Of a stretch of 64,000 bases of DNA, positions 1,143-17,858 are shown piece after piece. Numbering within the stretch: the first letter of the stretch is position 1; the number at the start of each line of letters is the position of its first letter. A model generated the notes under the pieces. The model was not told where the DNA came from. It ran no database searches and was given only the letters and a program-made list of their open reading frames with translations. The DNA comes from Arenicellales bacterium (GTDB lineage: Bacteria > Pseudomonadota > Gammaproteobacteria > Arenicellales > JAJDZL01), in contig CBDEVD010000005.1 in the NCBI GenBank assembly GCA_965243645.1, positions 23,258 through 87,257 of the forward strand. Direction: 5' to 3'. A program made the position numbers and the translations under genes.

Positions 1143-1578
1143 TTAAAAAATCACCTTCTGTCAGCACGGCAGGTGTGATGGATCAACTCACTACAGTATG
1201 GATTCATTCCGTTCAGTATATCCCAAAGCTGCTACAGCTTTTGACGCAACACTGCCGATCGAGTCAAACTGCCATAGATCGGCAGTAAACTTACCAAAAA
1301 ACATAACCAGCGATTACGCGCCGAAATCGAAAGATTCTGTCTGCATGGGTAGCGGTCAAAGTACCAATCGATCAATTTCGATAATTCGATTTCAACTCAC
1401 CGATTACATTTTTTATGGCTTTGGCAGACGCAACGCGATAGCTGAAATCGCCTGATGAAATGGTTTGTGCCATTCCTAGCCATTCGCTAGGCCGAAAACG
1501 CAATCAATCAGGCAGTTTCAAAGCTTGGCATTTCAAAATTCAGCATCGTGAGTTAACCGAAGTCAAGAATTCATAAGC

Positions 1579-2078
1579 TTACAATTCACGTTCAGCGACG
1601 AAATTCAAATAAGGAGCAAAGGCTTCGTTAACTGATTCCGGTGTCAAATCATAATCGTTCAGATCGAAACTGTGTCGCGGTTCGTTGCGACGTTGTTCCT
1701 CTTGCAATATGAGCCACTCCTGCATTTGATCGATCGCAGTTGTCTGCAAAGATCAATTCAATTGCGAATAAATGTCATGAACCACAGCCATCGGATCCCG
1801 AACCAAATCGCTGTACCGCACATCCACCCAGCGTTTTTCAATCTCAGGATGGTCTAATCTGAATTGAATCGCGTTGTTGAGCATATCGCACATCAGCACG
1901 ACCTTGAGCAGCGCACAATGAAAGGCTGCCGCTTCCATGTGCCCAACATTACTCTTCACACTCGATATTCGCAACGGCAATGCCCGTTCGGTACTACTGA
2001 AGGCGGTCGCGAGTGCATTGCCTTCAATCGGGTCTCCAACGGGCGTACCCGTCGCATGGGCTTCGATGTAATCGAATT
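1579..2078 (-). pseudogene. Fossil: C-terminal part of a ketosynthase domain fused by deletion (~1836) to the C-terminal part of a sulfotransferase, with an in-frame TGA at 1753-1755
   Basis: [18 protein letters not shown]...[14 protein letters not shown]...LLKVVL is a KS C-terminal motif. It runs directly into ...[39 protein letters not shown]...FAPYLNFVAEREL, a sulfotransferase-type tail. The same frame continues through the TGA. Confidence 0.7.
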
Positions 2079-2260
2079 GGGACTTATAGACCTTACTTGA
2101 CAAAATCAAGTAAATGCATACTCTCTTGACGGATCATCGAGGTTACCTAGGTAATCGCCTCTCCCACGTCCAATCGCCCGAGTCCCCAAGGCTTTAATAT
2201 TCAATGCAGCATTCACATCTGCATTGTCCGAATGATCACAGACCACACACCGGAATACCG
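2079..2260 (-). ncRNA. Putative TnpB omega (right-end) RNA region; extent is a guess
   Basis: By analogy with characterised TnpB systems, where the guide RNA scaffold overlaps the 3' end of tnpB and ends at the element's right end. Only the hairpin at 2093-2113 is actually visible. Confidence 0.25.
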
Positions 2261-3329
2261 CCTGACTCCGGCGATTGTCTGCATCAATGTGTCCACACGT
2301 ATGACACCGGCGACTGGTATTGATCGCACTGACTTCTATCACTTCAGTTTTATATGCCAGCTTCTGCTTCAATCCATACCAGCCGGTGTTCAATATCTCG
2401 CGATTCAATCCCGACTTGGCCGCTACATTCACTCCGGGTTCTTCGACTGTGCCTTTGGCTGATTTTGTCATCCCTTGGGTGCTTAAATCCTCTACCACTG
2501 CATACTGATAATCATTGGCAATGGCTCGGGATTCCTGGTGATGCCAGTTCGAACGAATGTGCTTGATCTTACGTGAGGCTTTCTTCGCGCGTTTGCGGGT
2601 TTTCAAATACCGGTTCGAGGGCTTGATCCCCTGTTTGTGAATCGGTCTTTGCTGACGCGCCATCCGGCGCTGATAACGGTTGCGCTTCGCTTCAAGTGTC
2701 TTGACATCCGGTAAGTGTCTGATCTCACCCTCACTGGTTGCAAACTGACCCACATTCATGTCAATGCCAACAGCTCTACCGTTATCTGTTACTTGAATCA
2801 ATTCCTCACTGACTTCATAACACACGGTTGCATAATACTTGTCTTCTTCCCGTTTGATCACCACTTGCTTGGTGTTACAACCGTCGTAGGGATTGGAACC
2901 GCTCAACACCACCTGACCGATTCTTTGCAAATGTAGACTGGTACCGCTTAGTTTAAAAGAACCTTCCGGAAATGTGACTGAATCATCGTGGTAGATTTTG
3001 GACTTGAACTTGGGATAGCCTTTCTTGGATTTGAAAAACTGCTGCCAGGCATCAGCTTGATATTTTAGTGCGTAGCGTATGGGGGCATACGGCAGTGTCT
3101 TGAGCCATTCGGTTTGCTTGCGCAGTTCGGTGAAACATTTACCGAGAGAGAAGAAACTTGTTTCAGGACGCGGCAAGGACTGATCATCCTCATGGGCGCG
3201 CATCATTTGCTGGTTGATACCAAGGAAGTGATTCCACACAAAGCGGGTGGCACCCAGGCACTGGTTGAGTAAATTGGCCTTGGTGCGGGTCAGTGGATAC
3301 AGGCGATAACGAATGTTTCGGTGAGGCAT
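2106..3329 (-). CDS. tnpB: TnpB (OrfB) RNA-guided endonuclease-family protein
   Basis: 407 aa. RuvC-like segments (AVGIDMNVG..., YAVVEDLS..., [11 protein letters not shown]) and a zinc ribbon CHTCGH...FRCVVCDH near the C-terminus. Typical OrfB_IS605 layout. Confidence 0.85.
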
Positions 3330-3733
3330 GGATATATAACCGATCTTATAGGATTGTATTATATATCATTGTTATTATGTTTATTATTAATGTTGTCAAC
3401 TTATCTATATAGTGCGCCGTGGAAAGGTGCTTGTCTCTAGTGGGTGCGAATCCCACCCAACAGTTGTCGTTGTCGGTTGGTAGCGACTGAAACGGATCAT
3501 GGAGGTAACGACATGGTTTGAAGCATTTCAGATAGAAGGGTTGCGTAAGGCAACTCAGCGACCATACGGGCCAGAACGCGAGTGAACGTTGAGCAGGCCT
3601 CGAAAATAGTAATGCGGAAGCTGATTCTGTCTATATTCAGAAGAAAGCCGGTGGCATCTTGGGAAGTAAGCGACATCAGCACTGAGATGTTTCCGCCGGG
3701 GTATTGACGCTGGCTGTAGGTAACGGTTGAATC

Positions 3734-3765
3734 TCCCCACTATGTTGCCCACTACATAGTGGGGA
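3734..3765. repeat. 32-nt 12-8-12 palindromic junction site of RIT element 1 (TCCCCACTATGT tgcccact ACATAGTGGGGA)
   Basis: Read directly. The outer 6 nt (TCCCCA) belong to IS21 repeat L1. The same hexamer ends the opposite IR at 7184-7189. Confidence 0.85.
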
Positions 3766-3798
3766 CTATCTCGCCAACCGAACTATGTAGCGTAGTTT
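3760..3798. repeat. RIT1 terminal inverted repeat, left copy
   Basis: TGGGGACTATCTCGCCAACCGAACTATGTAGCGTAGTTT is the exact reverse complement of 7151-7189. Confidence 0.95.
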
Positions 3799-3878
3799 CT
3801 GAAGGCAACGTTATCATGTTGAAAAGAAATAATAATAGTGTACGAATTTTCGAACAACGCTACATAGTATTTCTACGC

Positions 3879-4889
3879 TCACAAGCTGTCGAGAAACTTC
3901 ATCAGTTGATCATCTGCGGTAAAGCGCGTTGGTTTTTGCGAAAGTGGCGTCACTTTGGCGAGTGCCTGAATTTTCATCTCCATCGTCGCTTCTACGTAGA
4001 TCTGAGTAGTTTCAACATGCTCGTGCCCTAACCACAATGCAATGGTTGACCGGTCTACGCCACCTTGCAACAACTCCATTGCCGCGGTGTGCCGCAATAG
4101 GTGGACGCTGAGTTGTTTAATTGCGAGTGTAGGGCATTGTATGGCTGCCTTTTTTTGATGTTTTTTCAACATGTACTGAACACCGTGGATCGTTAACGAG
4201 TCACCGCGAAAATTTGGAAACAATTGCTTAGAGTTTCCACGGTCCGGTTCCCGCATCCAGCGGGTCAGCACTGAACGAGTGGATTTTGCCAGCGGTGTAC
4301 AACGTTGCTTACGTCCTTTACCGAAAACCCGCAAGTGAGAACTTTCACCCAAAATGACATCTTCGCGCTTCAGTGCGGTCATCTCCGATACCCGAAGCCC
4401 AGTTTGTACTGCCGTGAGAATAAAGGCGTGATCGCGCCGCCCAATCCACGTACTGCGCACGGGAGCGTTCAGCAACGCGACCACCTCTTCCCGGCGAAGA
4501 AAGCCAATTTGTTTGTGCACAAAACGTTTGGCCGGAATAGCCAGCACTTTTTGAATTTGTACTGAATGTTCGGGGAACGTCTGCTCAAATGCGTAGCGGA
4601 AAAACGACTGAATTGCAGTCAATCTCAGATTTCGGGTGCGGATACTGACCTTACGGGCAGTTTCCAGATCATCAAGAAACGCTGAGATTAAAGTTTCATC
4701 AAGCTGATTGAACAGTAACTTGGAAGGTTCCTGTCCCAAGTATTTGGCTGCAAAATCGAACAGTTGTCGAAATGTATCGCGATATGACTTGACCGTATGA
4801 TGGCTTGCTTGACGTTGGTTGGTCAGGCGTTGAAAAAAGTACTGCTTGATCAGAACGGTCAATTCATTGGGGGTGGTGTGAGGATTCAT
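3879..4889 (-). CDS. ritC: Tyrosine recombinase, third gene of trio 1
   Basis: Phage-integrase fold motifs (...GLRVSE..., HLLRHTAAMELL, LGHEHVETTQIYVE). The ATG at 4889 overlaps the upstream stop (ATGA). The ORF track's longer start at 4904 is less likely. Confidence 0.85.
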   Translation of the reverse strand: MNPHTTPNELTVLIKQYFFQRLTNQRQASHHTVKSYRDTFRQLFDFAAKYLGQEPSKLLFNQLDETLISAFLDDLETARKVSIRTRNLRLTAIQSFFRYAFEQTFPEHSVQIQKVLAIPAKRFVHKQIGFLRREEVVALLNAPVRSTWIGRRDHAFILTAVQTGLRVSEMTALKREDVILGESSHLRVFGKGRKQRCTPLAKSTRSVLTRWMREPDRGNSKQLFPNFRGDSLTIHGVQYMLKKHQKKAAIQCPTLAIKQLSVHLLRHTAAMELLQGGVDRSTIALWLGHEHVETTQIYVEATMEMKIQALAKVTPLSQKPTRFTADDQLMKFLDSL

Positions 4890-5830
4890 AACACACCTTC
4901 CCAACGACGTTCGAGTTTTCGCATGGCCTGTGACATCAACCCAGGATTACTTTCCAGATACCAGTAGGTATTGCCAATGCGCACATGGCCCAGGTAGGCC
5001 GAAAGCACGGGCAATATCTTTTCCGGATCGGCATCGCTGCGATAACAATTCTCCAGAGCTCTGACTGCGAAGCGGTGTCTGAAATCTTGCAGACGTGGTC
5101 CATGGGAATCATGCGTTTTGCGCAGACCAGACTGGATTGTCAAAGCGCGGAAAGTGTCTTGTACCAGCCCTTTGGATAATCGTGTGCCGTTGCGCGTTAC
5201 AAACAACTGTTCGGCCACTGGGTGGCCGCACCAATATTGTGCCCGCCGCTGTATATACTCCTCAAGCGCTGTACAGGTCGACTCATGGATTGGAACAAGA
5301 CGCGTACGATCGTATTTTTCCGCATGAACTGTGATCAATGCACGATTTAAATCGACATCCTTGAGTTTTAGTCCGCAGGCCTCACCGGGCCGCATTCCTG
5401 TAACGCACAGCAATCCAATCAAACAATAGTAGGTCCATGGACGCAATGCATCATGTCGTGTTCGACAAGGCATATTTTGTGCGCTCTGCATCAAGATGCA
5501 CACTTCTTCTTCCGTGTACAGATATGGTTTCGGTCGACTACGCTTTGCCGACAGTACATGGAAAGCAGGAATTTCGGTTCTTGGATCAGCAATTTGTCGA
5601 TAACGCGCAAATTCTCGTACCATGCCAAGACGGGCAACCGCCCAAGCAGGCTTTGCTTCGCCCGGCAACTGCGCCCATTTGACCGCCCATGCTTCGGTGA
5701 TATACGATTGCTTGTGCTGCTCGAGATACATGACAAATTGCGTCAAATACCGTTCTGCATCAGACAGTTTAAATCCGAGGCTACGTCTGAGGTTCACGTA
5801 ATCGTGAACCGCCTGTTTCATTGTATTCAT
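4886..5830 (-). CDS. ritB: Tyrosine recombinase, second gene of trio 1
   Basis: GMRPGEAC..., FRHRFAVRAL, LGHVRIGNTYWYLE. The ATG at 5830 overlaps the ritA stop by 1 nt (TGATG). Confidence 0.85.
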   Translation of the reverse strand: MNTMKQAVHDYVNLRRSLGFKLSDAERYLTQFVMYLEQHKQSYITEAWAVKWAQLPGEAKPAWAVARLGMVREFARYRQIADPRTEIPAFHVLSAKRSRPKPYLYTEEEVCILMQSAQNMPCRTRHDALRPWTYYCLIGLLCVTGMRPGEACGLKLKDVDLNRALITVHAEKYDRTRLVPIHESTCTALEEYIQRRAQYWCGHPVAEQLFVTRNGTRLSKGLVQDTFRALTIQSGLRKTHDSHGPRLQDFRHRFAVRALENCYRSDADPEKILPVLSAYLGHVRIGNTYWYLESNPGLMSQAMRKLERRWEGVL

Positions 5831-7059
5831 CAGCTTACTCCCGGCCACCGCAGTGTCAAACCACGCAGTGCATCAATATCGACCTTGGTGTAAATATGCG
5901 TGCTCTCAAGGTCGCGGTGGCTGAGCAAGTTTCCAATCTGTTCCAGTGAGGCACCTTGGCTCAACATTGTGGTGGCAACCGCATGTCGTAATTGATGGCT
6001 CCCGCGGGTTGGCGCATCGATGCCAGCGCGCTGGATTTGACGACTGACCAGGCTGCAAACACCGACTGAAGTTTTAAATCCGTCGTATGGCGCATTGACA
6101 CGCAAAAACACGCGTCGGCTGTGACTTTTCGGACGCGCATTTTGCAGATAATCAACCATCGAATCACCGATTTGTTGGGTTAACGGATAGCGACTTTGAC
6201 GCCCACTTTTTAACGTTACGGTCAGCGTTGAAGTGCTCCAGTCAATATCATCAAGTGTCAAGAATGCCACCTCGCAAGCACGTAATCCCAACCGTGCGAG
6301 CAACAAAATGATTGCGTAGTCTCGCTTTCCGGTCGCCGTAGTGCAGTCAACGCTGTCCAATAGCTTTTCCACCTGTTCGGATGCCATTGCGCGCGGCAAC
6401 GATTGCTGTGACCAGCCCGCCACCGAAGGTACTTGAGAGATTGTTTCAGTCAGTTTTCCGGTTTGACGATTCACATAGCGCAGAAACGAACGTAATGCAA
6501 CGGCAATAGCTTGTACGCTTGCAACTTGATTCAATAGTTTGGCTTTATGACGCAAATAACTAATCACGCCTTCGGTGCATAATGAATCAAAATCCACAGC
6601 TTCATTGCCAAATTGATAATGGAGGAATTCTCGAACGACTGCGCGATAACACCGAATGGTGCCTCCGGCCAGATTCCTTTGTACTCGCAAATACTGCGCA
6701 TACTGCGCAACACAATGGTCCACCGATGACAAGACTTGAACTGTGCAAGTCAAAGCTGGAAGTCCTTCCGATTGTAAATAGATGGATAAATGCCCAATCG
6801 CATTGCGTGCATGCGTTCGCACGATGCCTTTCTTGGTTTCCAAATAGCGTTCGGTCTGTTCTTCCGAAAATGTGTCGAGTCCAATTTGCTGCTCTGCCAA
6901 CCATTCGCTGAATCGGGCAACGTGACGCGATATGCAATAAACAGTTACCGGTGCATACTGTTTTGCGCGTAATACCTCAGCAAATTGGGACAAATGTGAA
7001 GCGAACGGTCCAATTGCTGGCCGTCGAAACGTAATTTGATCATAATTCCGATTACTCAT
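5830..7059 (-). CDS. ritA: Tyrosine recombinase, first and largest gene of trio 1
   Basis: GLRACEV..., HQLRHAVATTML, LSHRDLESTHIYTKV. The ATG at 7059 is preceded by GGCAGGAGC. Confidence 0.85.
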   Translation of the reverse strand: MSNRNYDQITFRRPAIGPFASHLSQFAEVLRAKQYAPVTVYCISRHVARFSEWLAEQQIGLDTFSEEQTERYLETKKGIVRTHARNAIGHLSIYLQSEGLPALTCTVQVLSSVDHCVAQYAQYLRVQRNLAGGTIRCYRAVVREFLHYQFGNEAVDFDSLCTEGVISYLRHKAKLLNQVASVQAIAVALRSFLRYVNRQTGKLTETISQVPSVAGWSQQSLPRAMASEQVEKLLDSVDCTTATGKRDYAIILLLARLGLRACEVAFLTLDDIDWSTSTLTVTLKSGRQSRYPLTQQIGDSMVDYLQNARPKSHSRRVFLRVNAPYDGFKTSVGVCSLVSRQIQRAGIDAPTRGSHQLRHAVATTMLSQGASLEQIGNLLSHRDLESTHIYTKVDIDALRGLTLRWPGVS

Positions 7060-7150
7060 AATATAGCTCCTGCCCATAAACGGGCTGTGATTGAAGCCTA
7101 TACTATGTCGTCATCGATTTGATTTTTTACAATTAAATTAGGATGTTAAT

Positions 7151-7189
7151 AAACTACGCTACATAGTTCGGTTGGCGAGATAGTCCCCA
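7151..7189. repeat. RIT1 terminal inverted repeat, right copy
   Basis: Exact reverse complement of 3760-3798. Confidence 0.95.
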
Positions 7190-7228
7190 ATATAAACGGT
7201 TGAAATTCCCCAGTTGTGGGAACAAAGG

Positions 7229-7264
7229 TTTGCCTTCCTGCCTTTTAAAAGGCAGGAAGGCAAA
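7229..7264. repeat. 36-bp perfect loop-less palindrome (TTTGCCTTCCTGCCTTTT/AAAAGGCAGGAAGGCAAA) between the IS21 left-end repeats and istA
   Basis: Read directly. It may be a read-through insulator or terminator-like hairpin of the IS. Confidence 0.8.
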
Positions 7265-7320
7265 ATCGATAATTTTGCTCTATGGTTCGGGTTTTCCACA
7301 CCTCAACCTAGAACACAACC

Positions 7321-9389
<2,069 letters not shown>

Positions 9390-10026
9390 CGCGCTCCTTG
9401 GGCTCAAGCGCAAACTGAAATGTTGACACAATTGAATGTCGAACAATTTAAAAATAATAATCTCAGGAGGCTCTGATCTACAATAACGGCTGATCACCGA
9501 TTCACCCGAAAGTGGGGATTTTCAATCGCGACTTTTGGGGATTTTGAGACCGTTACCTACACTGGCACGTGTGGAAGAGGAGAGAGGTGGCAACACGGGA
9601 AGCCCTGGCAGTGGTGAAGCACACACCAAACTGGTAATCCGCGAGGACTGGACTGGGCTGTCAGGGTGGGTACGCCAGGCTAACTGGCATAAGGGTAGTC
9701 GGTGAAAGTCCGATGGATAGTAAATGTTAACCACATGCTGTCGCCGCGAGCCGTGCGCTGATACTCGTGAGGGTATTGGTGAAGTGTCGGTAGCGGTACG
9801 CATAGCCGCGATGATAGAGCATCGAAAAACAGGTCTTTTAGAGAGTCGAGACTTTTCACCCGGTCGAAGACAATATCGGCTGTACTGTAATGGTGAGGTA
9901 CATTTGATCTCTGCGGTGTCGAAGGAATCGATGGATGTGCGCATGCCCTATGTTGGGACCTGGGAGGGGTTTATCTTTCCTTGACGGTCGTGTCAAGGAC
10001 GCTGAAAGAAAGGAGGTATTCTGAAT

Positions 10027-11514
10027 TTGAAGATGAACGGGATAAACCAGTCGGATGCAGGCATAGTACTGATGACAGCGGCGAACAAAGAGGTGCAAGC
10101 CTTGGCGGAGTCGAACGAGGGAAGGGCTGCAACCAAAGGGAATCTGCAAAGCCAAAGCACGTGCCGCACACGGGGGCGGGAGAGCGTGTCACAGGCGGTG
10201 GAGCGGATACGGCAGGCTGTGAAGAGAAATCCGAAGGAGAAACTCACTGCGCTGTTGCACCATATATCGGTAGATACGCTTTGCTGGTCGTTTTACTCAT
10301 TGAAGAAGAACGCAGCGGCAGGTGTTGACGGTGTTGTATGGGAAGAGTACGAGCAGGAGTTGGACAGTCATTTGGCTGACCTGCACCGGCGCGTACATAC
10401 AGGTGCGTACCGGGCGCTGCCATCGCGGCGGGTGAATATCCCCAAAGCCGATGGTGGGACACGACCGCTCGGCATTGCTGCATTGGAGGACAAGATTGTC
10501 CAAAAGGCGGTGGTGGAGTTGATTCTTACGCCGATTTACGAGGCGGAGTTTCTTGGATTCAGTCATGGATTCCGGCCGGGACGGGGAGCGCATGATGCGC
10601 TCGATGTGCTGGCTTACGGAATCACGGAGCGCAAAGTCAACTGGATAGTAGACGCAGACATTCGTGCATTCTTTGATCGTATAGACAGAGACTGGCTGGT
10701 TCGGTTTCTGGAGCACCGTATCGGGGACAAGCGGGTGATTCGCCTGATTATCAAGTGGCTGAACGCTGGTGTAATGGAAAGTGGTAAATGGCAGGACGAC
10801 TTACGCGGAGTTCCACAAGGAGCGATTGTGAGCCCCGTTCTGGCTAACGTTTACCTACATTATGTGCTGGATTTGTGGTTTCACAAAAAGTGGAGGCCGA
10901 ATCAGGCACGGGGGCAGGCGATGATAGTTCGCTATGCGGATGACTTTGTGGTCTGTTTCCAATACCAACAGGACGCACAGCGGTTTGTGTGCGATCTGGA
11001 GAAACGACTAAGGGATTTTGCATTGGAGTTGCATCCTGACAAGACCCGCATGATCGAGTTTGGGCGTTTTGCTTGGCAAGACCGCACGGCTCGTGGTGAG
11101 GGTCGTCCTGAGACGTTTGACTTTCTGGGTTTTACGCACTATTGTCGTAAAACAAGAAAAGGCAAATTTGGGCTGGGACGTAAACCGATTGCAAAACGGG
11201 TTAACCGCACACTTAATCGGATTAAGGCTGAGTTGCGGCGGCGGATGCACCATGATGTGTATGAAGTTGCCCGCTGGCTGGGACAAGTGCTGCGTGGCTG
11301 GTTAGGCTACTATGCTGTACCCACCAGTGGACCGTCCCTGAATTCTTTCGTTCACTGCATCAAAGCAATTTGGCTGAGAGTTCTGCGTCGACGGTCTCAA
11401 AAAGACCGTTTCTGCGGTATCCGTCTCGACCAGATTGTTCAAACGTGCTGGCCGCCTGTGAAGATATTACACCCATGGCCGGATCAACGGTTTGCCGTCA
11501 AACACCTAAGGTAG
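10027..11514 (+). CDS. Group II intron reverse transcriptase/maturase (intron 1)
   Basis: RT motifs AAGVDG, PKADGGTRPLGI, VPQGAIVSPVLANVYL, RYADDFVV, and the X/maturase region LRGWLGYY. No obvious HNH domain. Confidence 0.9.
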   Translation: MKMNGINQSDAGIVLMTAANKEVQALAESNEGRAATKGNLQSQSTCRTRGRESVSQAVERIRQAVKRNPKEKLTALLHHISVDTLCWSFYSLKKNAAAGVDGVVWEEYEQELDSHLADLHRRVHTGAYRALPSRRVNIPKADGGTRPLGIAALEDKIVQKAVVELILTPIYEAEFLGFSHGFRPGRGAHDALDVLAYGITERKVNWIVDADIRAFFDRIDRDWLVRFLEHRIGDKRVIRLIIKWLNAGVMESGKWQDDLRGVPQGAIVSPVLANVYLHYVLDLWFHKKWRPNQARGQAMIVRYADDFVVCFQYQQDAQRFVCDLEKRLRDFALELHPDKTRMIEFGRFAWQDRTARGEGRPETFDFLGFTHYCRKTRKGKFGLGRKPIAKRVNRTLNRIKAELRRRMHHDVYEVARWLGQVLRGWLGYYAVPTSGPSLNSFVHCIKAIWLRVLRRRSQKDRFCGIRLDQIVQTCWPPVKILHPWPDQRFAVKHLR

Positions 11515-11547
11515 GAGCCGTATGCGTTAGCGCGCACGTACGGATTC
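11515..11547 (+). ncRNA. Group II intron domain V (intron 1)
   Basis: GAGCCGTATGCGTTAGCGCGCACGTACGGATTC. AGC triad, two-part helix, starts right after the RT stop. Confidence 0.8.
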
Positions 11548-11677
11548 TGTGCGGGGGGAAGGCAGTAATGCTTTTCCCTACCGCGACCGGAGAGGTTCGT
11601 AGTACCGGAGAAGTCGGGTAATGCCGATGGAGGGAAGGGACCTTGATTCGGAAGCAGTATGTAAAGGCAGAAAGGAC

Positions 11678-12400
11678 ATGACAACTGACGAAAGTCTAAC
11701 AGGGTCAGATAAGGTTCAGAGACTACGGCGCATACTACATGCCAAAGCGAAGGCAGAACCGAAGTTAAGATTTCATGCGTTGTATGACAAGGTGTGGCGG
11801 ATGGATTTTCTCACCGAAGCGTACCGGCAGGTGCGCCGCAACGGCGGTGCTGCCGGTGTGGACGGGGAGACGTTCGCGAACATTGAGGCATACGGGGTTG
11901 AGAGCTGGCTTGGGGAACTGGCGCGGGAACTTAAAGACAAGACCTATATACCCGGAGCGGTGCGACAGGTCTTGATTCCAAAGAAGCAAAAGGGCAAGTT
12001 TCGCCCACTGGGCATTCCTTGCTTGCGAGACCGGGTGGTTCAGACCTCGGCGATGTTAGTTTTAACACCGATCTTTGAGGCTGATCTCGGTGAGGAGCAA
12101 TATGCCTATCGGGCGGGCAGGAGTGCGCACGATGCGGTCAATCGTATTCATGCGCTCCTGAACACGGGACACAATGAAGTGGTGGATGCTGATTTATCCA
12201 ATTATTTCGGTGAGATTCCCCATGCTGAGTTGATGAAGAGTTTAGCCCGTCGCATCAGCGATGGTGCGATGCTCAGATTGATCAAGTCATGGTTGGAGAT
12301 GCCGGTCGAAGAGGATAATGGCAAGGGCGGCAAACGCTGCACGAACCAGGCGAAGAAGTGGCGTAAGGGCAGCCCACAGGGTTCGCCCATATCGCCGCTG
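11678..12400 (+). pseudogene. Group II intron RT (intron 2), N-terminal fragment
   Basis: GAAGVDGETF, PKKQKGKFRPLGIP, SPQGSPISPL, then the reading frame runs into RIT2 sequence. Confidence 0.85.
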
Positions 12401-12426
12401 TTATGGGAACTTTCCCATAACAGCGG
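12395..12426. repeat. 32-nt 12-8-12 palindromic junction site of RIT element 2 (CCGCTGTTATGG gaactttc CCATAACAGCGG)
   Basis: Read directly. The outer 6 nt (CCGCTG) are RT2 codons Pro-Leu. The same hexamer ends the opposite IR at 16114-16119. Confidence 0.85.
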
Positions 12427-12511
12427 TAATGGGAACCTTATGATTATGGGAACCTAGACTATCCTGATCTTTGATTATCAATGGTATAGGCTAGAATCAG
12501 GTTCCCATAAG
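12421..12511. repeat. RIT2 terminal inverted repeat, left copy (contains TATGGGAAC sub-repeats)
   Basis: Exact reverse complement of 16029-16119, checked base by base. Confidence 0.95.
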
Positions 12512-12522
12512 ATTATTTCACT

Positions 12523-13515
12523 TCAGACCTCTGCGAGCATAGCAAGCAACTCATCCTGAACTCCTTTGAACTTGCCTTTGCGTAGACTCACGGGTCGCCA
12601 CTTCTCGAGTGTATTCAACTTATCAGCCGGGTCCGATCGAAGATACATCTCGGTAGTCTGGATACTCGAGTGTCCCAACCACGCTGAGACTTTTCTAACG
12701 TCTCCGGTTGCTTCAAGAGTGTGAAGCGCGCAAGCATGCCTCAAAAGATGGGGCGTTACAGTCTTTTTTGCAATGGATGGTACATTTTGTGCCGCAGTTT
12801 GCGCATGTACGACAAGACGTTTTGCAAAACCGCGTCGAGTCATCCCTGTGCCCATGGAATTTAAGAAAAAATGTCGGTCGTTACTGTCATGTCGAACAGC
12901 CAGCCAGTCGCGCAGAGCACCGCGGGTGTCCGTCCAAAGCGGTTGAATACGTTGCCGTCGACCTTTACCCAAAATATGCACCTCATCAAGAGCTGGCATC
13001 TTCAGATCATCAAGCGCAAGCCCAACCAACTCCGAAACACGCAGGCCAGCGTTGTAGGTCAAGTACAGCATTGCCCGGTCCCGAATCCCAGTCGTAGTTT
13101 TCGGATTCGGCGCATTCAGCAGCGCACGCACTTCCTTGCGATCCAAAGAGCCAATGAGTGGTACGATGCCCTTCTTTATGGGGATTTCACGAACTTGTCC
13201 AGCAAGCGCAAGATACGCTGGATTGCGGAACTCGAGAAACCGAAAAAAAGCCTTGATCGCCGCGAGCCGAGCATTGCGTGTATTGACACTGTTGCCTCGC
13301 TCTGTTTCGAGATGCTCAAGAAACTTGAGAATGGTTTCAACATTCAGGTGCCCGATCTCAAGCTCACAGGGTCGGGCACCGTGTAGATTGGCAGTAAAAA
13401 CGATCAACAGCTTAAAGCAAAGAGCATAGCTTTCTACGGTATGCCGACTCGTACCTTTGTCGCGTGGCAGGTATTCGCGCAAAAACTTTTCAAGTGAACA
13501 GGCAAGGTTACTCAT
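12523..13515 (-). CDS. ritC: Tyrosine recombinase, third gene of trio 2
   Basis: GLRVSELV..., HLLRHACALHTL, LGHSSIQTTEMYL. The ATG at 13515 overlaps the ritB stop (ATGAGTAA). The 393-aa ORF-track version starts implausibly far upstream. Confidence 0.85.
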   Translation of the reverse strand: MSNLACSLEKFLREYLPRDKGTSRHTVESYALCFKLLIVFTANLHGARPCELEIGHLNVETILKFLEHLETERGNSVNTRNARLAAIKAFFRFLEFRNPAYLALAGQVREIPIKKGIVPLIGSLDRKEVRALLNAPNPKTTTGIRDRAMLYLTYNAGLRVSELVGLALDDLKMPALDEVHILGKGRRQRIQPLWTDTRGALRDWLAVRHDSNDRHFFLNSMGTGMTRRGFAKRLVVHAQTAAQNVPSIAKKTVTPHLLRHACALHTLEATGDVRKVSAWLGHSSIQTTEMYLRSDPADKLNTLEKWRPVSLRKGKFKGVQDELLAMLAEV

Positions 13516-14434
13516 TACACCCTCCCTGCCGATACAACCGTTCGGTTTGTTCAGAGATCTGTCGCAGCAACACCGGCGTTGCTTCAAGGTACCAATACGT
13601 GCCTGCAGCATTGGAATGTCCCAGATAAGTCGACAGTGCCAGCATGTGACGCCCCACATCTTCACGATCATTGGACAGCATGTTCTCGAGCGAACGAGTT
13701 GCAAACCCGTGCCTCAAATCGTGAAGACGCGTTCCCGGTTCGCCTGTCCCAGCTCGAAGACCACACTGTCGGGCCAATTTGACAAACACGGTGGACAGAT
13801 AGACCGGACGCATCGGTCGACCAGTCGACAGTACAAACAGGTGTTCGCTGGGTCCGCCGAGTCGCTTCCTGTCTCGTAGGTATTCATCCATCGCTTGATG
13901 AACACTATCGCTCAACGGCACCAGACGGGACTTGCCGAACTTCGTGTTTCTGATCAACAGTCCATCTTCTGTCAAGTCTTTCAGCAACAGATTGGCTGCT
14001 TCCGATCGACGTAATCCGGTCGCAGCGATTAGACCCACGATGTAATGGAAAGTCAATGGCGTGATTGAGCCTGCTGGCCCCAATTGCAATGCCGCGTCCA
14101 TGATCTGCGTGACCTCTGCCAGTGACAGCAAACAGGGTGTTGGCCGTCGTGAGATGGTTTTACCCAAAGCAGTGCGATCCGGGACTTCATGGCGTTCATC
14201 GTCGGCGTGCAAAACGCAAGCCAGGTCGCAAACATAGCCCAGTTTGCTCTGCCTCTGCCGGGAAGACGGTGTATTCGATAACCAATTAAATACAGTACTG
14301 CAACGCACGAACTGGTCGCCACAATCCATGGCGTAAGTCGCATAATCGTTCAACACACGCGCCTGTTGATCATACTTGTATCCGAGGGCTTTTCTGAAAC
14401 TGACATAATCATTGACCTTTTCTAAGAGTGTCAT
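13508..14434 (-). CDS. ritB: Tyrosine recombinase, second gene of trio 2
   Basis: GLRRSEAA..., LHDLRHGFATRSL, LGHSNAAGTYWYLE. The ATG at 14434 overlaps the ritA stop (ATGA). Confidence 0.85.
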   Translation of the reverse strand: MTLLEKVNDYVSFRKALGYKYDQQARVLNDYATYAMDCGDQFVRCSTVFNWLSNTPSSRQRQSKLGYVCDLACVLHADDERHEVPDRTALGKTISRRPTPCLLSLAEVTQIMDAALQLGPAGSITPLTFHYIVGLIAATGLRRSEAANLLLKDLTEDGLLIRNTKFGKSRLVPLSDSVHQAMDEYLRDRKRLGGPSEHLFVLSTGRPMRPVYLSTVFVKLARQCGLRAGTGEPGTRLHDLRHGFATRSLENMLSNDREDVGRHMLALSTYLGHSNAAGTYWYLEATPVLLRQISEQTERLYRQGGCNE

Positions 14435-15981
14435 TGCAGACCTCCTGCGGTCGGCCAAGGCTGGGCAACATCACGAAGCATTCGGATATCGACCCTTGCA
14501 TAAACGGCTGTAGTTGTCATTGATTGATGGCGCAGCAGAGCACTGATCACTTCGAGTGGCGTATGGTCATGTAGCAAGTTCGTTGCTGCAGAATGTCTAA
14601 ATAGATGCGCGGCAGGCAGCCCGTCGGCTTTGATACCGACGCGCTTGATCGCCGCTCCTGCGACGGCGGAAACGCCACCGCTTGACAGTGCTTGATCAAT
14701 TGGTGGGGGCATGCGTAAGAATACCTTTTCAGTCGCGGAAACAAGTCTGGCATGCACGATGTAATTTCTGAGCGCGTCGCCGACATCCTGCGGCAGAGGC
14801 AACGCTGCCGCACACCGCGACTTGCCGCTGACGCGGACCAGTGCATTGTCCCAATCGATGTCTTGCAACTCAAGGTTAGCCACATCTCCGGCACGCAGGG
14901 CGAGTCTGGCCAGAAGCAACAAAATGGCGCGGTCTCTGATCCCCATCGCAGTTGTCAGATCGCACGATGCAATAATGCGTTCGATATCTTCCTGCGGCAA
15001 ATGACGAGGCAATGTCGAGAATCTTTGCCTCGGAATCATGGGAACCGCAGCAGCCAGTCCCGGGCGGCAAAGACCATTTAATGTGAGAAAACGCAGATAC
15101 TGTCGAAATGCTGAGACTTGACGGCGGACCAGTTCACGCGACGCGGTCTCAAGGCGGCGTTGGACAGCAGTTCTGATGAGTGTGGCACTGTACCGATCAG
15201 GTTCATCACCCAGATGAACAATAAACAATTCAACAGCCTTGCGGTAGCTTTGTACAGTTTTCTCCTGAATATTGCGGTAGTTACGTAGCCAGTTCTGATA
15301 TTGCGCCAGGTATTGTCCTGTCTCCTCGGATGTTGGACACACGCGCGGCGAAACGATGCCTGTGTCTCTGAGATACTTAATGAATACCCGGATTTTGATA
15401 TGACTGTTGTCACAACCCGAAAATCTATTGCCTCTGATAAAAAAATGCGGATGCACACAGGTGCACTGATGCGAAAGAAACTGAGTTAAAGTATCGTCAC
15501 TGATTTTGACTAATTTGATGTCTTGTAGATAAAGCCAGACAATCAAGTGCCGGCAACGCTTGCGGTACGCGACAACCGAATCTTGCACATACCCTTTTGC
15601 CGCAAGTGTTTTCAAAAACGACTCCACCGCGTGGCTGTCAATCTCAATCTGCTCGGGCAACCGGGCTACTCCTGCCTCCATTAAAAAGCCGAGGAACTGG
15701 TGCAACTGCCAATTCATACGTTGTAAGTTCTTGCGATAACCGTGCGGACCGGGGCAAGTACAGTCGTGATTGAGGAATTGATCTAAGACACGAATGTCGA
15801 GCAACTCGATCGGAATCCCTTTTGCTGACAACCATGTCATCAGGTGAATGACGACTCGGACACACTTGGCAAGGAAGCTTTCGCAATATCCCATCGCCTG
15901 CAAGTGTGCTTTGTAATTGTGAACAATATCCAACTCGCATCCGTCTGCGCGTTGTATTGCATTGATGACCTTCGAAGGCAT
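14431..15981 (-). CDS. ritA: Tyrosine recombinase, first and largest gene of trio 2
   Basis: ALRAGDV..., HLFRHSAATNLL, LRHQSMTTTAVYARV. The ATG at 15981 is preceded by AGGAGA. Confidence 0.85.
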   Translation of the reverse strand: MPSKVINAIQRADGCELDIVHNYKAHLQAMGYCESFLAKCVRVVIHLMTWLSAKGIPIELLDIRVLDQFLNHDCTCPGPHGYRKNLQRMNWQLHQFLGFLMEAGVARLPEQIEIDSHAVESFLKTLAAKGYVQDSVVAYRKRCRHLIVWLYLQDIKLVKISDDTLTQFLSHQCTCVHPHFFIRGNRFSGCDNSHIKIRVFIKYLRDTGIVSPRVCPTSEETGQYLAQYQNWLRNYRNIQEKTVQSYRKAVELFIVHLGDEPDRYSATLIRTAVQRRLETASRELVRRQVSAFRQYLRFLTLNGLCRPGLAAAVPMIPRQRFSTLPRHLPQEDIERIIASCDLTTAMGIRDRAILLLLARLALRAGDVANLELQDIDWDNALVRVSGKSRCAAALPLPQDVGDALRNYIVHARLVSATEKVFLRMPPPIDQALSSGGVSAVAGAAIKRVGIKADGLPAAHLFRHSAATNLLHDHTPLEVISALLRHQSMTTTAVYARVDIRMLRDVAQPWPTAGGLQ

Positions 15982-16028
15982 GCTGATTCTCCTGTTTAGG
16001 GTTAAACCCCCAAAGGATACCAGCAATT

Positions 16029-16119
16029 CTTATGGGAACCTGATTCTAGCCTATACCATTGATAATCAAAGATCAGGATAGTCTAGGTTCCCATAATCAT
16101 AAGGTTCCCATTACCGCTG
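16029..16119. repeat. RIT2 terminal inverted repeat, right copy
   Basis: Exact reverse complement of 12421-12511. Confidence 0.95.
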
Positions 16120-16737
16120 CTCAGTTCCGTCTACATGCGACGGTTCATTGTCGGTTGGAAACATCTGGGCTTGGCTCACAGATTCCAGTCCCACATTGTC
16201 AATTACGCAGATGACATCTGCATCCTGGGTAAAGCACCGGCGGCGCAAATGCAGTCAGCCTTTACGCGGATAATGGCGCAGCTGAAATTGCCAGTGAATG
16301 TGGACAAGACCCGGTGTTTAAGGTGTCCGGAGGCGGCTTTGGAGTTCTTGGGTTATCGGATCGGAATGAACTATCGGTATGACGGAACAGGGGCCTATAT
16401 CGGTACCCGTCCGAGCAAGTCGAGCATTCAGCTGATCTGCCGTAAAGTGAGTGAGCAGACCGCAAGTCGATACGGGTTTCTGGACGATGATGAGATGGTT
16501 AGGCGTTTGAACTGGATGTTGTCTGGTTGGGCGAATTACTTTCATTTGGGACAGGTATCCCCGGCTTATGCGGCGGTCGATGCGCACACCAGAAAACGGC
16601 TGCGTCAGTGGCTGTGTCGGAAACACAAGGTGAAAAGTGGGAAATATGTGCGCTTTTCCATTGCGAAGTTGTATGATTCATACGGCCTGGTTCACCTTGC
16701 GTCTACCACCACGAGCCTGCCGTGGGCGAAGGTATGA
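16120..16737 (+). pseudogene. Group II intron RT/maturase (intron 2), C-terminal fragment
   Basis: LSSVYMRRFIVGW..., NYADDICILG, LSGWANYF, ending ...TSLPWAKV (a typical maturase tail). Confidence 0.85.
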
Positions 16738-16747
16738 TTTCGGATGA

Positions 16748-16780
16748 AAGCCGGATGCGGGAAATCCGCCCGTCCGGTTT
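16748..16780 (+). ncRNA. Group II intron domain V (intron 2)
   Basis: AAGCCGGATGCGGGAAATCCGCCCGTCCGGTTT, with a GAAA tetraloop, just after the RT2 stop. Confidence 0.75.
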
Positions 16781-16830
16781 GACGAGCGGCTACTGGAAAC
16801 GGACAATATGGCGTGGAGTGAGGCACTGGC

Positions 16831-16907
16831 GTACTGTGAAAACTGCCAGCAACAGTTTCCCCCATCGACCTAATTTATACCGCGCCAGTAGTCGACTCTA
16901 CAGTCCC
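16831..16907. other. Terminal segment of the outer element (possible far end of the tnpB element)
   Basis: Ends ...GTAGTCGACTCTACAGTCCC with an imperfect palindrome GTAGAGTCGACTAC on the other strand. It abuts the 8-bp repeat. The assignment is inferential. Confidence 0.35.
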
Positions 16908-17858
16908 ATCGAATTCATGGGCGCTACGACCGGCACGTGCCATCGCTGTGCGCATGAGCGACAGCTGACCATGATGAGTTGGCGCACTGATAAAACGCCC
17001 AGGCGCATGCCCGCTTGAGCCATCGCCAGTACCCGCAGCGTTTACCGCAGTCGCTTCGATGACTGCGTGGATCATATCTCCGTCGAGTTCAGCTGCTGCC
17101 AGCGGTTTGATAGCAAACACAAATGCTCCTTCGGCGCGCATGTAACCGTTCGCGCTGGCATCAAACGAATAACACTTGCCGTCGGGACTGATGATTCCCA
17201 TCAGGTTGAAACTGCTGCTCAGCCTCGCGCTACCCAAATAGGTAACACTACCCACCAGTGCTTGCGTGCAATCGCCACAGGCAATGGCATTGATCGCCGC
17301 ATGCAAGGCACTCAAACCAGCGGAACAAGCCGTGCAGTAGGTTGCCGATGATCCCATGAGGTTAAAGTGATACGAGATTCGATTGGCCAACATCGCCAGA
17401 CTGGTGCCTGGAACCGTATACTCTGTCACACCTAACTGCGGTCTCCAATTGGCGATGGCCGGCACCTGAGCTCCAACAAAAACTCCGGTGGCACTGTTAC
17501 GCAGTGAGGAAAGGTCCCAACCCGCGTGTTCAATCGTCTCCCACGCACAATTCAGCAGCATCCTCACCTACGGTTCAGTCTGCAGCAATTCATTGTGAGA
17601 CATGCCAAAGAATGCTCGATCGAAGAGCAGTTCGTCTTCGTTTCGAATGAGCCCTTCGTAGGGACTGACTAAACGCCCAGGGCCCGAGAACCTCCCAATC
17701 GGCCCGTGGCCTCGACCATACCGATCATTGATCGGCTCCTGAACTATGTCGCGTTCGCTGAGCAAATGCCAGAAGTCTTCATCTGAATTGATGCCGCCTG
17801 GCATGCGGTGGCTGTAGCTCACGATGGCTACGGGGTTGCCAGACGAAGCTTCCTGCAC
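16908..17858 (-). pseudogene. Ketosynthase domain, N-terminal two-thirds, with an in-frame TAG at 17568-17570
   Basis: VAIVSYSHRMPGG...FW...; ...LLQTEP*VRMLLNCAWETIE (compare KS consensus DPQQRLLLE); active-site TACSAGL; ...SAPTHHGQLSLMRTAMARAGRSAHEFD. It continues at 2078. Confidence 0.8.

Follow-up and report, generated by a model that had tools for sequence, protein, structure and literature searches.

We analyzed a stretch of 64,000 nucleotides (hereafter the window) from an Arenicellales bacterium (assembly GCA_965243645.1, contig CBDEVD010000005.1, positions 23,258 to 87,257 of the forward strand). Positions 12401-16119 of the window hold a complete recombinase-in-trio (RIT) element, which lies inside the reverse transcriptase (RT) gene of a group II intron. 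The element, referred to as RIT element 2, is 3,719 bp in length and consists of ritA-ritB-ritC and recombination sites only, with no cargo. Its two terminal inverted repeats (IRs) match each other with 100% complementarity over 92 nt, and the window has no longer repeat. An initial annotation, made from the sequence alone, had placed them at 12421-12511 and 16029-16119; it was right about their perfect identity and one nucleotide short in giving them 91 bp. We use X for a sequence of ~6 bp found at the junctions, X' for its complement, S1 to S3 for the 11-mers repeated in the IRs, pal for a 20-nt palindrome, RT2 for the interrupted RT gene and intron B for the intron that hosts it. The features are as follows.

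11621-12400, plus strand: N-terminal half of RT2 (RVT_1; TIGR04416 positions 3-189), ending in ...PQGSPISPL
12395-12400, plus strand: X' copy 1, CCGCTG, the Pro-Leu codons of the target and a direct repeat of 16114-16119
12401-12420, no strand: pal, TTATGGGAAC/TTTCCCATAA, two inverted half-sites, part of the element
12421-12512, plus strand: ritC-side IR, with a layout conserved family-wide, made of X (CAGCGG, 12421-12426), S1 (TAATGGGAACC, 12427-12437), a 6-nt spacer, S2 (TTATGGGAACC, 12444-12454), ~45 nt, and S3 in inverted orientation (GGTTCCCATAA, 12500-12510)
12523-13515, minus strand: ritC, 330 aa, Phage_integrase E 3.5e-29
13508-14434, minus strand: ritB, 308 aa, Phage_integrase E 7.8e-20
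14431-15981, minus strand: ritA, 516 aa, Phage_integrase E 2.8e-25
16028-16119, minus strand: ritA-side IR, made of S3 (16030-16040), S2 (16086-16096), S1 (GGTTCCCATTA, 16103-16113) and X' copy 2 (CCGCTG, 16114-16119)
16120-16737, plus strand: C-terminal half of RT2, LSSVYMRRF...YADD..., with the maturase domain (GIIM E 9.6e-15; TIGR04416 positions 191-353)

The three rit genes (coordinates and lengths counted from the ATG starts) each encode a protein with a Phage_integrase domain. As the initial annotation had read them, ritA and ritB overlap by 4 nt (ATGA) and ritB and ritC by 8 nt (ATGAGTAA), and an AGGAGG-like ribosome-binding site is found ahead of each start. When RitA, RitB and RitC are aligned to XerD (1a0p) or to an XerC-like protein (4a8e), the GLR, GK, HxLRH and LGH...Y columns are intact and the catalytic R-K-H-R-H-Y set is complete in all three proteins. 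The catalytic positions are invariant in an alignment of 22 RitA sequences, and there are no stops or frameshifts across the 1,154 rit codons. The proteins fail the equivalog models of the chromosomal XerC and XerD (TIGR02224 and TIGR02225), with best scores of ~136 bits for RitA, 62 for RitB and 166 for RitC and cut-offs of ~330. A SAM-like core-binding domain was detected in RitA and RitC, and none is recognizable at the N-terminus of RitB. RitC extends ~37 residues at its C-terminus past the XerD alignment, while in RitA the usual core-binding domain is preceded by two tandem helical repeats of ~90 aa, 27% identical to each other (E 5e-10). A scan for promoters and terminators gave hits no more numerous than in shuffled sequence and no convincing promoter.

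We observed that the RitA repeats (residues 20-212; window 15346-15924, minus strand) each carry an invariant H-x-C-x-C, i.e. H72/C74/C76 and H171/C173/C175 in the 22-sequence alignment, and these motifs may form a metal site. No sequence match of the repeats to a solved structure was found. The AlphaFold model of RitA has a mean predicted local distance difference test score of 64 with a poor catalytic domain, and its N-terminal helical domains alone are usable.

RIT elements are defined by the RitA, RitB and RitC subfamilies in this order, RitA having extra core-binding domains and RitC an extra C-terminal segment (PMC8138268). In the window, the three tyrosine-recombinase genes lie next to each other on one strand and overlap by 4-8 bp. 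Judged by domain layout and homologues, they follow the same subfamily order, with N-terminal repeats in RitA and a C-terminal extension in RitC. Terminal IRs (92 nt, perfect), a length near 3.5 kb (3,719 bp) and the lack of cargo complete the picture, and the initial annotation was right about the RIT identity, the intact trio and the perfect IRs. Equal gene spacing is seen in three of the related loci described below (L081-L083) and in the Sphingobium plasmid p3, and homologues of RitB are the middle gene of trios on 565 plasmids from taxa in which RITs were defined. The cultured Sphingobium plasmid encodes a trio of 515/304/334 aa with IRs of ~95 nt and a 20-nt pal, which ties the family of the window to the RIT elements of the literature. 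GInt and SE elements have four genes including a non-recombinase one (GinC/Tfp or Srap), asymmetric ends and cargo, whereas the element in the window has three genes, all for recombinases, symmetric ends and no cargo. It is also no Gamma-mobile-trio by the NCBIfam models for GmtY/GmtZ/GmtX, where the best GmtY score, 18.9 bits, falls below the cut-off of 340.

The sequence CCGCTG occurs at three places, i.e. 12395-12400, 16114-16119 and, as its complement, 12421-12426. X' and X on the two sides of pal extend it to a perfect palindrome of 32 nt (15+2+15) at 12395-12426, and X' copy 1 probably marks where crossover takes place (the overlap region) on the pal side. Of six exact matches of TATGGGAAC in the 64-kb window, five lie within the element ends, in agreement with the repeated 9-mer sub-sites proposed there before. 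Allowing up to one mismatch gives 24 matches, 9 of them in the element ends, versus 11.5 +/- 3.2 expected. We considered and rejected the idea that a transposase had produced CCGCTG by target-site duplication; X is also present inverted inside the element and varies like an overlap region.

Deletion of 12401-16119 joins the two halves of RT2 into one protein, which scores 310.6 bits against TIGR04416 (cut-off 300) in a single stretch. The motif-4 target DNA spanning the junction contains ...CCACAGGGTTCGCCCATATCGCCGCTGCTCAGTTCCGTC... We aligned the joined protein with 120 uninterrupted homologues of 70-86% identity, and over the 38 residues around the junction a gap is found in 1 of the 121 aligned sequences. 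Both the restored reading ...SPL|LSS... and the junction position given in the initial annotation are upheld by this alignment. The description of the insertion as in frame needs to be divided, as the junction does lie on a codon boundary and the 3,719 bp are not a multiple of three. Positions 12401-12420, which had been left unexplained, are the pal and a conserved part of the element. An unoccupied site can be read in the intact RT of a related locus (L008, 67% identical), where the sequence is GTG AGC CCG CTG TTG AGC TCC ATC TAC ATG. The protein database has no intact RT 100% identical to RT2, the best match being 86%. The target belongs to a group II intron, having an RT/maturase open reading frame and ribozyme parts both upstream and downstream.

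We collected 80 loci from marine bacterial metagenome-assembled genomes by a search with the RitA alignment, and compared ~90 related loci in all (numbered L001 onwards). Most of the 80 loci have IRs of ~90 nt around ~3.7 kb, and the X / pal / IR arrangement is present in ~45 related loci. Read in the orientation of the window, the layout of the family is target-X'-pal-X-IR-ritCBA-IR'-X'-target, where X is the ~6-bp overlap and X' its complement; read from ritA to ritC it is flank-X-IR-ritABC-IR'-X'-pal-X-flank. The plan of the IR is fixed, with X, S1 of 11 nt, 6 nt, S2 as a direct copy, ~45 nt and S3 as an inverted copy, and is shared by lineages with RitA identities of only 37-70%. The half-sites of pal resemble the 11-mers of the IRs and co-vary with them between lineages. 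Each X is hence bracketed by inverted 11-mer-like arms in one of three combinations, i.e. S1/X/pal half, target arm/X/pal half and S1/X/target arm, and this 11-6-11 layout is like that of the Xer/dif core site. Pal had also been considered as a terminator or as leftover target DNA, and both were rejected, since in different lineages and at different targets its sequence changes together with the 11-mers of the IRs.

The two IRs of one element differ by 0-9 mismatches in ~90 nt at all loci, while their ~45-nt spacer is very different between lineages. This near-identity within an element despite the divergence of the spacer suggests concerted evolution of the two arms. It also bears on the age of the insertion in the window. 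The initial annotation had taken the perfect IRs as a sign of recency, and they are weak evidence for it, because IR pairs differ so little in the whole family; the otherwise undamaged split RT is the better evidence. Genomes of the relatives contain up to ~10 RIT copies each. Many metagenome contigs with these RitA genes are only 3.4-3.7 kb in length (e.g. L007, L012, L064, L068 and L084), as would be expected from collapsed multi-copy repeats or from free forms.

The insertion had been described as a single event, and our comparison shows the RT site to be the preferred target of this RIT lineage. We found 19 distinct RT genes broken directly after ...PQG..S-P-(L/I/T/M/V). Searching with RT2 by tblastn, the RT matches end at RT2 residues 259-263, at the exact RIT ends, in 11 loci of the clade of the window. 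The closest relative of the element (L082, RitA 69%) splits an RVT_1/GIIM gene at the equal position with CCGCTT as X'. When JGI metagenomes were scanned independently for S1-N6-pal, eight matches came up, and all 8 encode ...PQG..SP(T/M/I/L) beyond pal.

RIT copies within one genome are 98.4-99.8% identical in L009/L010/L011 and 99.8% in L003/L018, and their flanks are different RT classes, e.g. ...SPL|LSNILLTPFDWEM versus ...SPI|LANVYLHYVLDLW. The element in the window is only ~70% identical in DNA to these copies, and the site is common to both. Near-identical RITs in different RT classes, together with an element of ~70% identity at the equal site, show these to be separate insertions. The RIT lineage is site-specific and lands at one codon pair of many RT genes. 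The unoccupied RTs in these loci and the intact RT1 of the window have CCGATC, CCGGTT or CCCGTT at the position of X'. We also looked at the pal half-sites as mimics of the C-terminal arm of the RT (TTATCGGAAC versus TTA TCG AAC, 'LSN'); the likeness is suggestive in the L003 group and absent from the element in the window, and we keep it as a lead only.

Sister RitA lineages, each with its own X, sit in genes for YhgA-type Transposase_31, IS110 DEDD, IS91 Y2, rve/Mu-C and IS66 transposases, and each has one position of its own in a different transposase gene. With the targets reconstructed, these insertions are L014/L015, L016, L043-L045, L065/L066 and L070. The RIT core site in turn receives insertions, since in at least 3 loci an IS91-like element lies exactly between X and S1 (L001 9561-12159; L008 ~1277-5868; L034 upstream of 5871; inverted in L013 and L021). 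This IS91-like element encodes a Y2 transposase with a Zn domain and a small tyrosine recombinase, and has the ends TTGAACTGAGCCGCGTTCCGCGG... and ...GATAAGAGCCTATTCA. The recombination site of the RIT is thus itself a target of another element.

The insertions have a constant polarity. Every pal-side junction that we read (11 loci, 19 distinct sequences) adjoins the N-terminal half of the RT, and none of the 12 C-terminal junctions has pal (the window, L003, L004, L006, L008, L010, L011, L013, L017, L018, L019 and L082). With respect to pal and target, both orientations of the trio occur in the family. In the pairs L014/L015, L024/L026, L043/L044 and L047/L048 homologous targets have an equal pal side and a flipped trio, and among the sister lineages such pairs were noted within a single genome. 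X' always begins with CC, and its positions 3-6 vary and follow the codons of the target. Often one junction has the X of the element and the other the target's own codons, e.g. CCGCTG/CCCATA in L018, CCCGTG/CCGCTG in L004 and CCGCTG/CCACTG in L019. L006 has a variant X' (CCTCTG) at one junction and L081 has three different X sequences. Two loci depart from the usual arrangement. L009 has a different RT N-terminal half on each flank, and pal on both sides. In L017 both flanks carry the identical RT C-terminal half, which makes a perfect IR of 417 nt, and pal is missing. Recombination (inversion) between two RIT copies would be expected to give such a pair of products, and RITs may drive chromosomal rearrangements in this way.

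Taken together, our analysis suggests that the element probably entered the RT gene of the intron as a complete RIT by site-specific recombination of the tyrosine-recombinase type, with a targeting shared by its lineage. In such a process the two outer X' copies would recombine and release a double-stranded circle, whose joint IR'-X'-pal-X-IR would be one long palindrome with two back-to-back core sites. Either core site could then pair with an RT target of the form TCN|CCNNNN|YTN, with strand exchange at both edges of the 6-bp overlap and homology required at the leading CC only. The overlap would be left as a heteroduplex and be separated at replication, giving one junction with the X of the element and the other with the codons of the target. 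Owing to the symmetry of the joint, pal would always come to lie beside the RT N-terminal half, and the trio could be in either orientation across the family. More speculatively, the repeated 11-mers might be bound by one Rit protein and the target arms read by the remaining two, a division suggested by one repeated 11-mer serving as the arms of the element while the target arms are unlike each other.

Several observations speak against this proposal. A few copies of the same lineage lie elsewhere than in an RT gene, namely L002, L081, which is inserted in an adh_short gene, and perhaps L001. CCGCTG is found 42 times in the window, so the 6-mer alone cannot explain the specificity, and the target arms have no strong DNA consensus beyond the conservation at the codon level. 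The trio is antisense to the RT in all seven complete RT insertions (the window, L003, L004, L010, L018, L019 and L082), where a symmetric joint predicts otherwise. The division of labour among the Rit proteins is entirely speculative. The loci compared gave no direct sight of a circle, an empty site or an inversion, and no second copy for the window's own genome was found in the 64-kb window or by look-ups of the exact RitC and the 100% RitA cluster. The movement of a RIT has never been reproduced (PMC10214605), and a mobilome study detected RIT DNA protected from exonuclease but no circular junction reads (PMC5737581).

The last finding would also fit a single-stranded or hairpin intermediate acting on the same element and target in place of the double-stranded circle. 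The routes could be a copy-out like that of SE, a folded strand that rebuilds a duplex core as in the CTX phage and integron attC, or hairpin ends at pal like those made by telomere resolvases. A hairpin of ~108 bp could form from IR'-X'-pal-X-IR, a palindrome of ~216 nt, within which pal and its X arms make up the perfect palindrome of 32 nt. Copying of one arm from the other would keep the two IRs near-identical while the lineages diverge, up to ~10 copies per genome need a replicative step, and the RIT DNA was protected without circle junctions (PMC5737581). Nevertheless we regard this route as rather unlikely: a conservative circle predicts all the junction features equally well, the Rit proteins have the full catalytic sets of ordinary Xer-like recombinases, and two staggered exchanges classically leave one element X and one target X at each insertion. 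A larger share of doubt falls on present activity. The copy in the window could be an immobile relic with intact-looking genes and no current activity in its host, where we retrieved no second copy, the host intron is riddled with other insertions and our scan gave no convincing promoter. We hold this to be possible though on balance unlikely, as the 1,154 codons are free of stops and frameshifts with their catalytic residues intact, the IRs are perfect, the three X copies are identical and the disrupted RT is otherwise undamaged.

Two other explanations dispense with targeting of RT genes. RITs might insert widely with no specificity and survive only inside other mobile elements, where the host is unharmed; the region is indeed a pile of nested mobile elements, and insertions in dead elements are neutral. 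But selection cannot put 19 independent insertions at one dinucleotide of a ~1.4-kb gene with a constant polarity, and each sister lineage has a single position of its own in a different transposase gene, so that we give this explanation hardly any credence. A single ancient insertion in an RT gene, spread afterwards as cargo of the intron so that the shared site is inherited, is just as improbable to us. The RIT of the window has ~70% DNA identity to the others and RT2 is 59-75% identical to the RTs of L019 and L009, so co-divergence is possible for that comparison alone. Elsewhere near-identical RITs sit in unrelated RT classes of one genome, the RIT/RT incongruence being evident for L003/L018 and L009/L010/L011, and X follows each target's own codons. 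An intron with its RT gene split by a 3.7-kb insert has moreover lost its own RT.

Elements of this kind have been on record since 2009. The element in the window shares with the described RITs (Van Houdt 2009/2012, PMC3414803) a long RitA followed by RitB and RitC, all encoded by adjacent tyrosine-recombinase genes that overlap, a length of ~3.5-3.7 kb, no cargo, and IRs at both ends overlapped by a palindrome. The presence of more than one identical copy in a genome and an occasional location inside transposase genes are common to the described RITs and to the relatives of the element, whose copies within a genome are 98-100% identical. The element in the window differs in RitA, which is ~410 aa in the archetype and 516 aa with an extra N-terminal repeat in the window. 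In 2012 Van Houdt reported a short IR with an 'overlapping palindromic sequence' and variable ends, and single cases in a transposase gene and in a radC gene (PMC3414803). The ends were called variable and unconvincing, with neither a target rule nor a crossover site, and a table of 2023 gives the target specificity, empty-site formation and mode of movement of RITs as 'not tested' (PMC10214605). The anatomy of the RIT att site, the crossover position and the link to group II intron RTs could not be found in the searchable literature, with the main 2013 RIT survey outside the scope of our reading, and the att-site anatomy and the RT target rule are new relative to that literature.

Tn554, SE and GInt also use several tyrosine recombinases, are site-specific and carry a 6-bp footprint of the donor flank to the new site (PMC10214605). 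SE and GInt differ by a fourth, non-recombinase protein, asymmetric ends and cargo, and Tn554 by its TnpC. The 92-nt IR with pal is a feature of the RIT in the window and is present in none of the three. A conserved multi-copy sequence serves as a safe harbour also for group IIC-attC introns, for IS1111 elements in attC/REP and for R1/R2 in rDNA; the harbour of the RIT, in contrast, is the DNA for a conserved motif of a catalytic region, and the insertion destroys that enzyme. XerC/XerD-dif and the IMEX (e.g. CTX phage) share with the RIT the Xer-like enzymes, the inverted arms of ~11 bp around a 6-bp centre and possibly a palindromic or foldable attP, while the element in the window encodes three enzymes of its own, has a coding motif rather than dif as its target and gives no sign of FtsK control. 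Tn916 and CTnDOT integrate with tolerance of heterology, with a 6-bp overlap that differs between element and target. In the overlap used by IntDOT of CTnDOT the GC is invariant, and a 'memory' of earlier sites is carried by these elements and by the RIT alike. Only a short homology is invariant in these elements as in the RIT lineage of the window, where it is CC. They differ in having a single arm-binding integrase with Xis and large cargo, as against the three simple recombinases and symmetric ends of the RIT.

The insertion kills the RT of intron B and is in this sense parasitism between mobile elements. The RIT gains a target that is multi-copy and travels horizontally, and whose disruption should cost the host little. 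We speculate, as a tentative idea that we rate below an even chance, that RITs as a class are site-specific parasites of other mobile elements, each lineage homing to the DNA of a conserved enzyme motif, with recognition through a symmetric double core site and a 6-bp overlap that requires a match at two bases only, the overlap rewritten at each hop and rivals switched off. The present lineage would have motif 4 of group II intron RTs as its home, and its sisters IS110, IS91, IS66 and the rve/Mu or YhgA-type transposases. Such a habit would, if true, explain the need for three recombinases, long a puzzle, with one protein for the 11-mers and two for the target arms. RITs are known across many bacterial phyla, and the target rule of the relatives makes their mobility directly testable. 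The analysis offers a site model with a 6-bp overlap, 11-mer arms, pal and a target of ~30 bp in a well-known gene. The element may also be a starting point for an integration tool, with homology at two bases of the overlap and the target read mainly through protein-DNA contacts.

Intron B (3410-16901) is stretched over ~13.5 kb by four nested insertions. Its 5' ribozyme part continues at 9564-9669 and 11588-11620 and then reaches RT2, and these 5' pieces are contiguous in the uninterrupted homologues of L008, L009 and L019. The sequence at 16746-16901 is homologous to that found downstream of intact RTs. The remaining parts are listed below.

3410-3714, plus strand: intron B, 5' ribozyme part (RF02003, 69 bits at 3438-3581)
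3715-9563: IS21, inserted in intron B, placed on the basis of its terminal repeats
~3740-7194: RIT element 1, inserted within the IS21
9670-11587: second group II intron with intact RT1, inserted in intron B (D1-D4 9705-9928; D5/6 11513-11587)
12401-16119: RIT element 2, inserted in intron B
16746-16901, plus strand: intron B, domain V/VI (RF00029, 39.5 bits with a gathering score of 40, E 3.7e-5)

RIT element 1 encodes a trio of 415/320/341 aa, has an IR of 48 nt and lies between the first and second left-end repeats of the IS21 (AACGGTTGAAtcTCCCCA at 3722 and AACGGTTGAAatTCCCCA at 7195). From this position the apparent 18-bp 'direct repeat' around it is the repeated binding site of the IS21 itself and not a duplication. 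A small palindrome at its ritC end (CCCCACTATGT...ACATAGTGGGG) gives no clean fit to the X-pal-X scheme.

Directly upstream of intron B there is a TnpB/OrfB_IS605 gene (2106-3329, minus strand). A truncated ketoacyl-synthase fragment (16875-17567, minus strand), covering profile positions 91-250 only, abuts the 3' end of the intron, so that a gene for a polyketide or fatty-acid synthase may have been broken up by intron B or by neighbouring elements.

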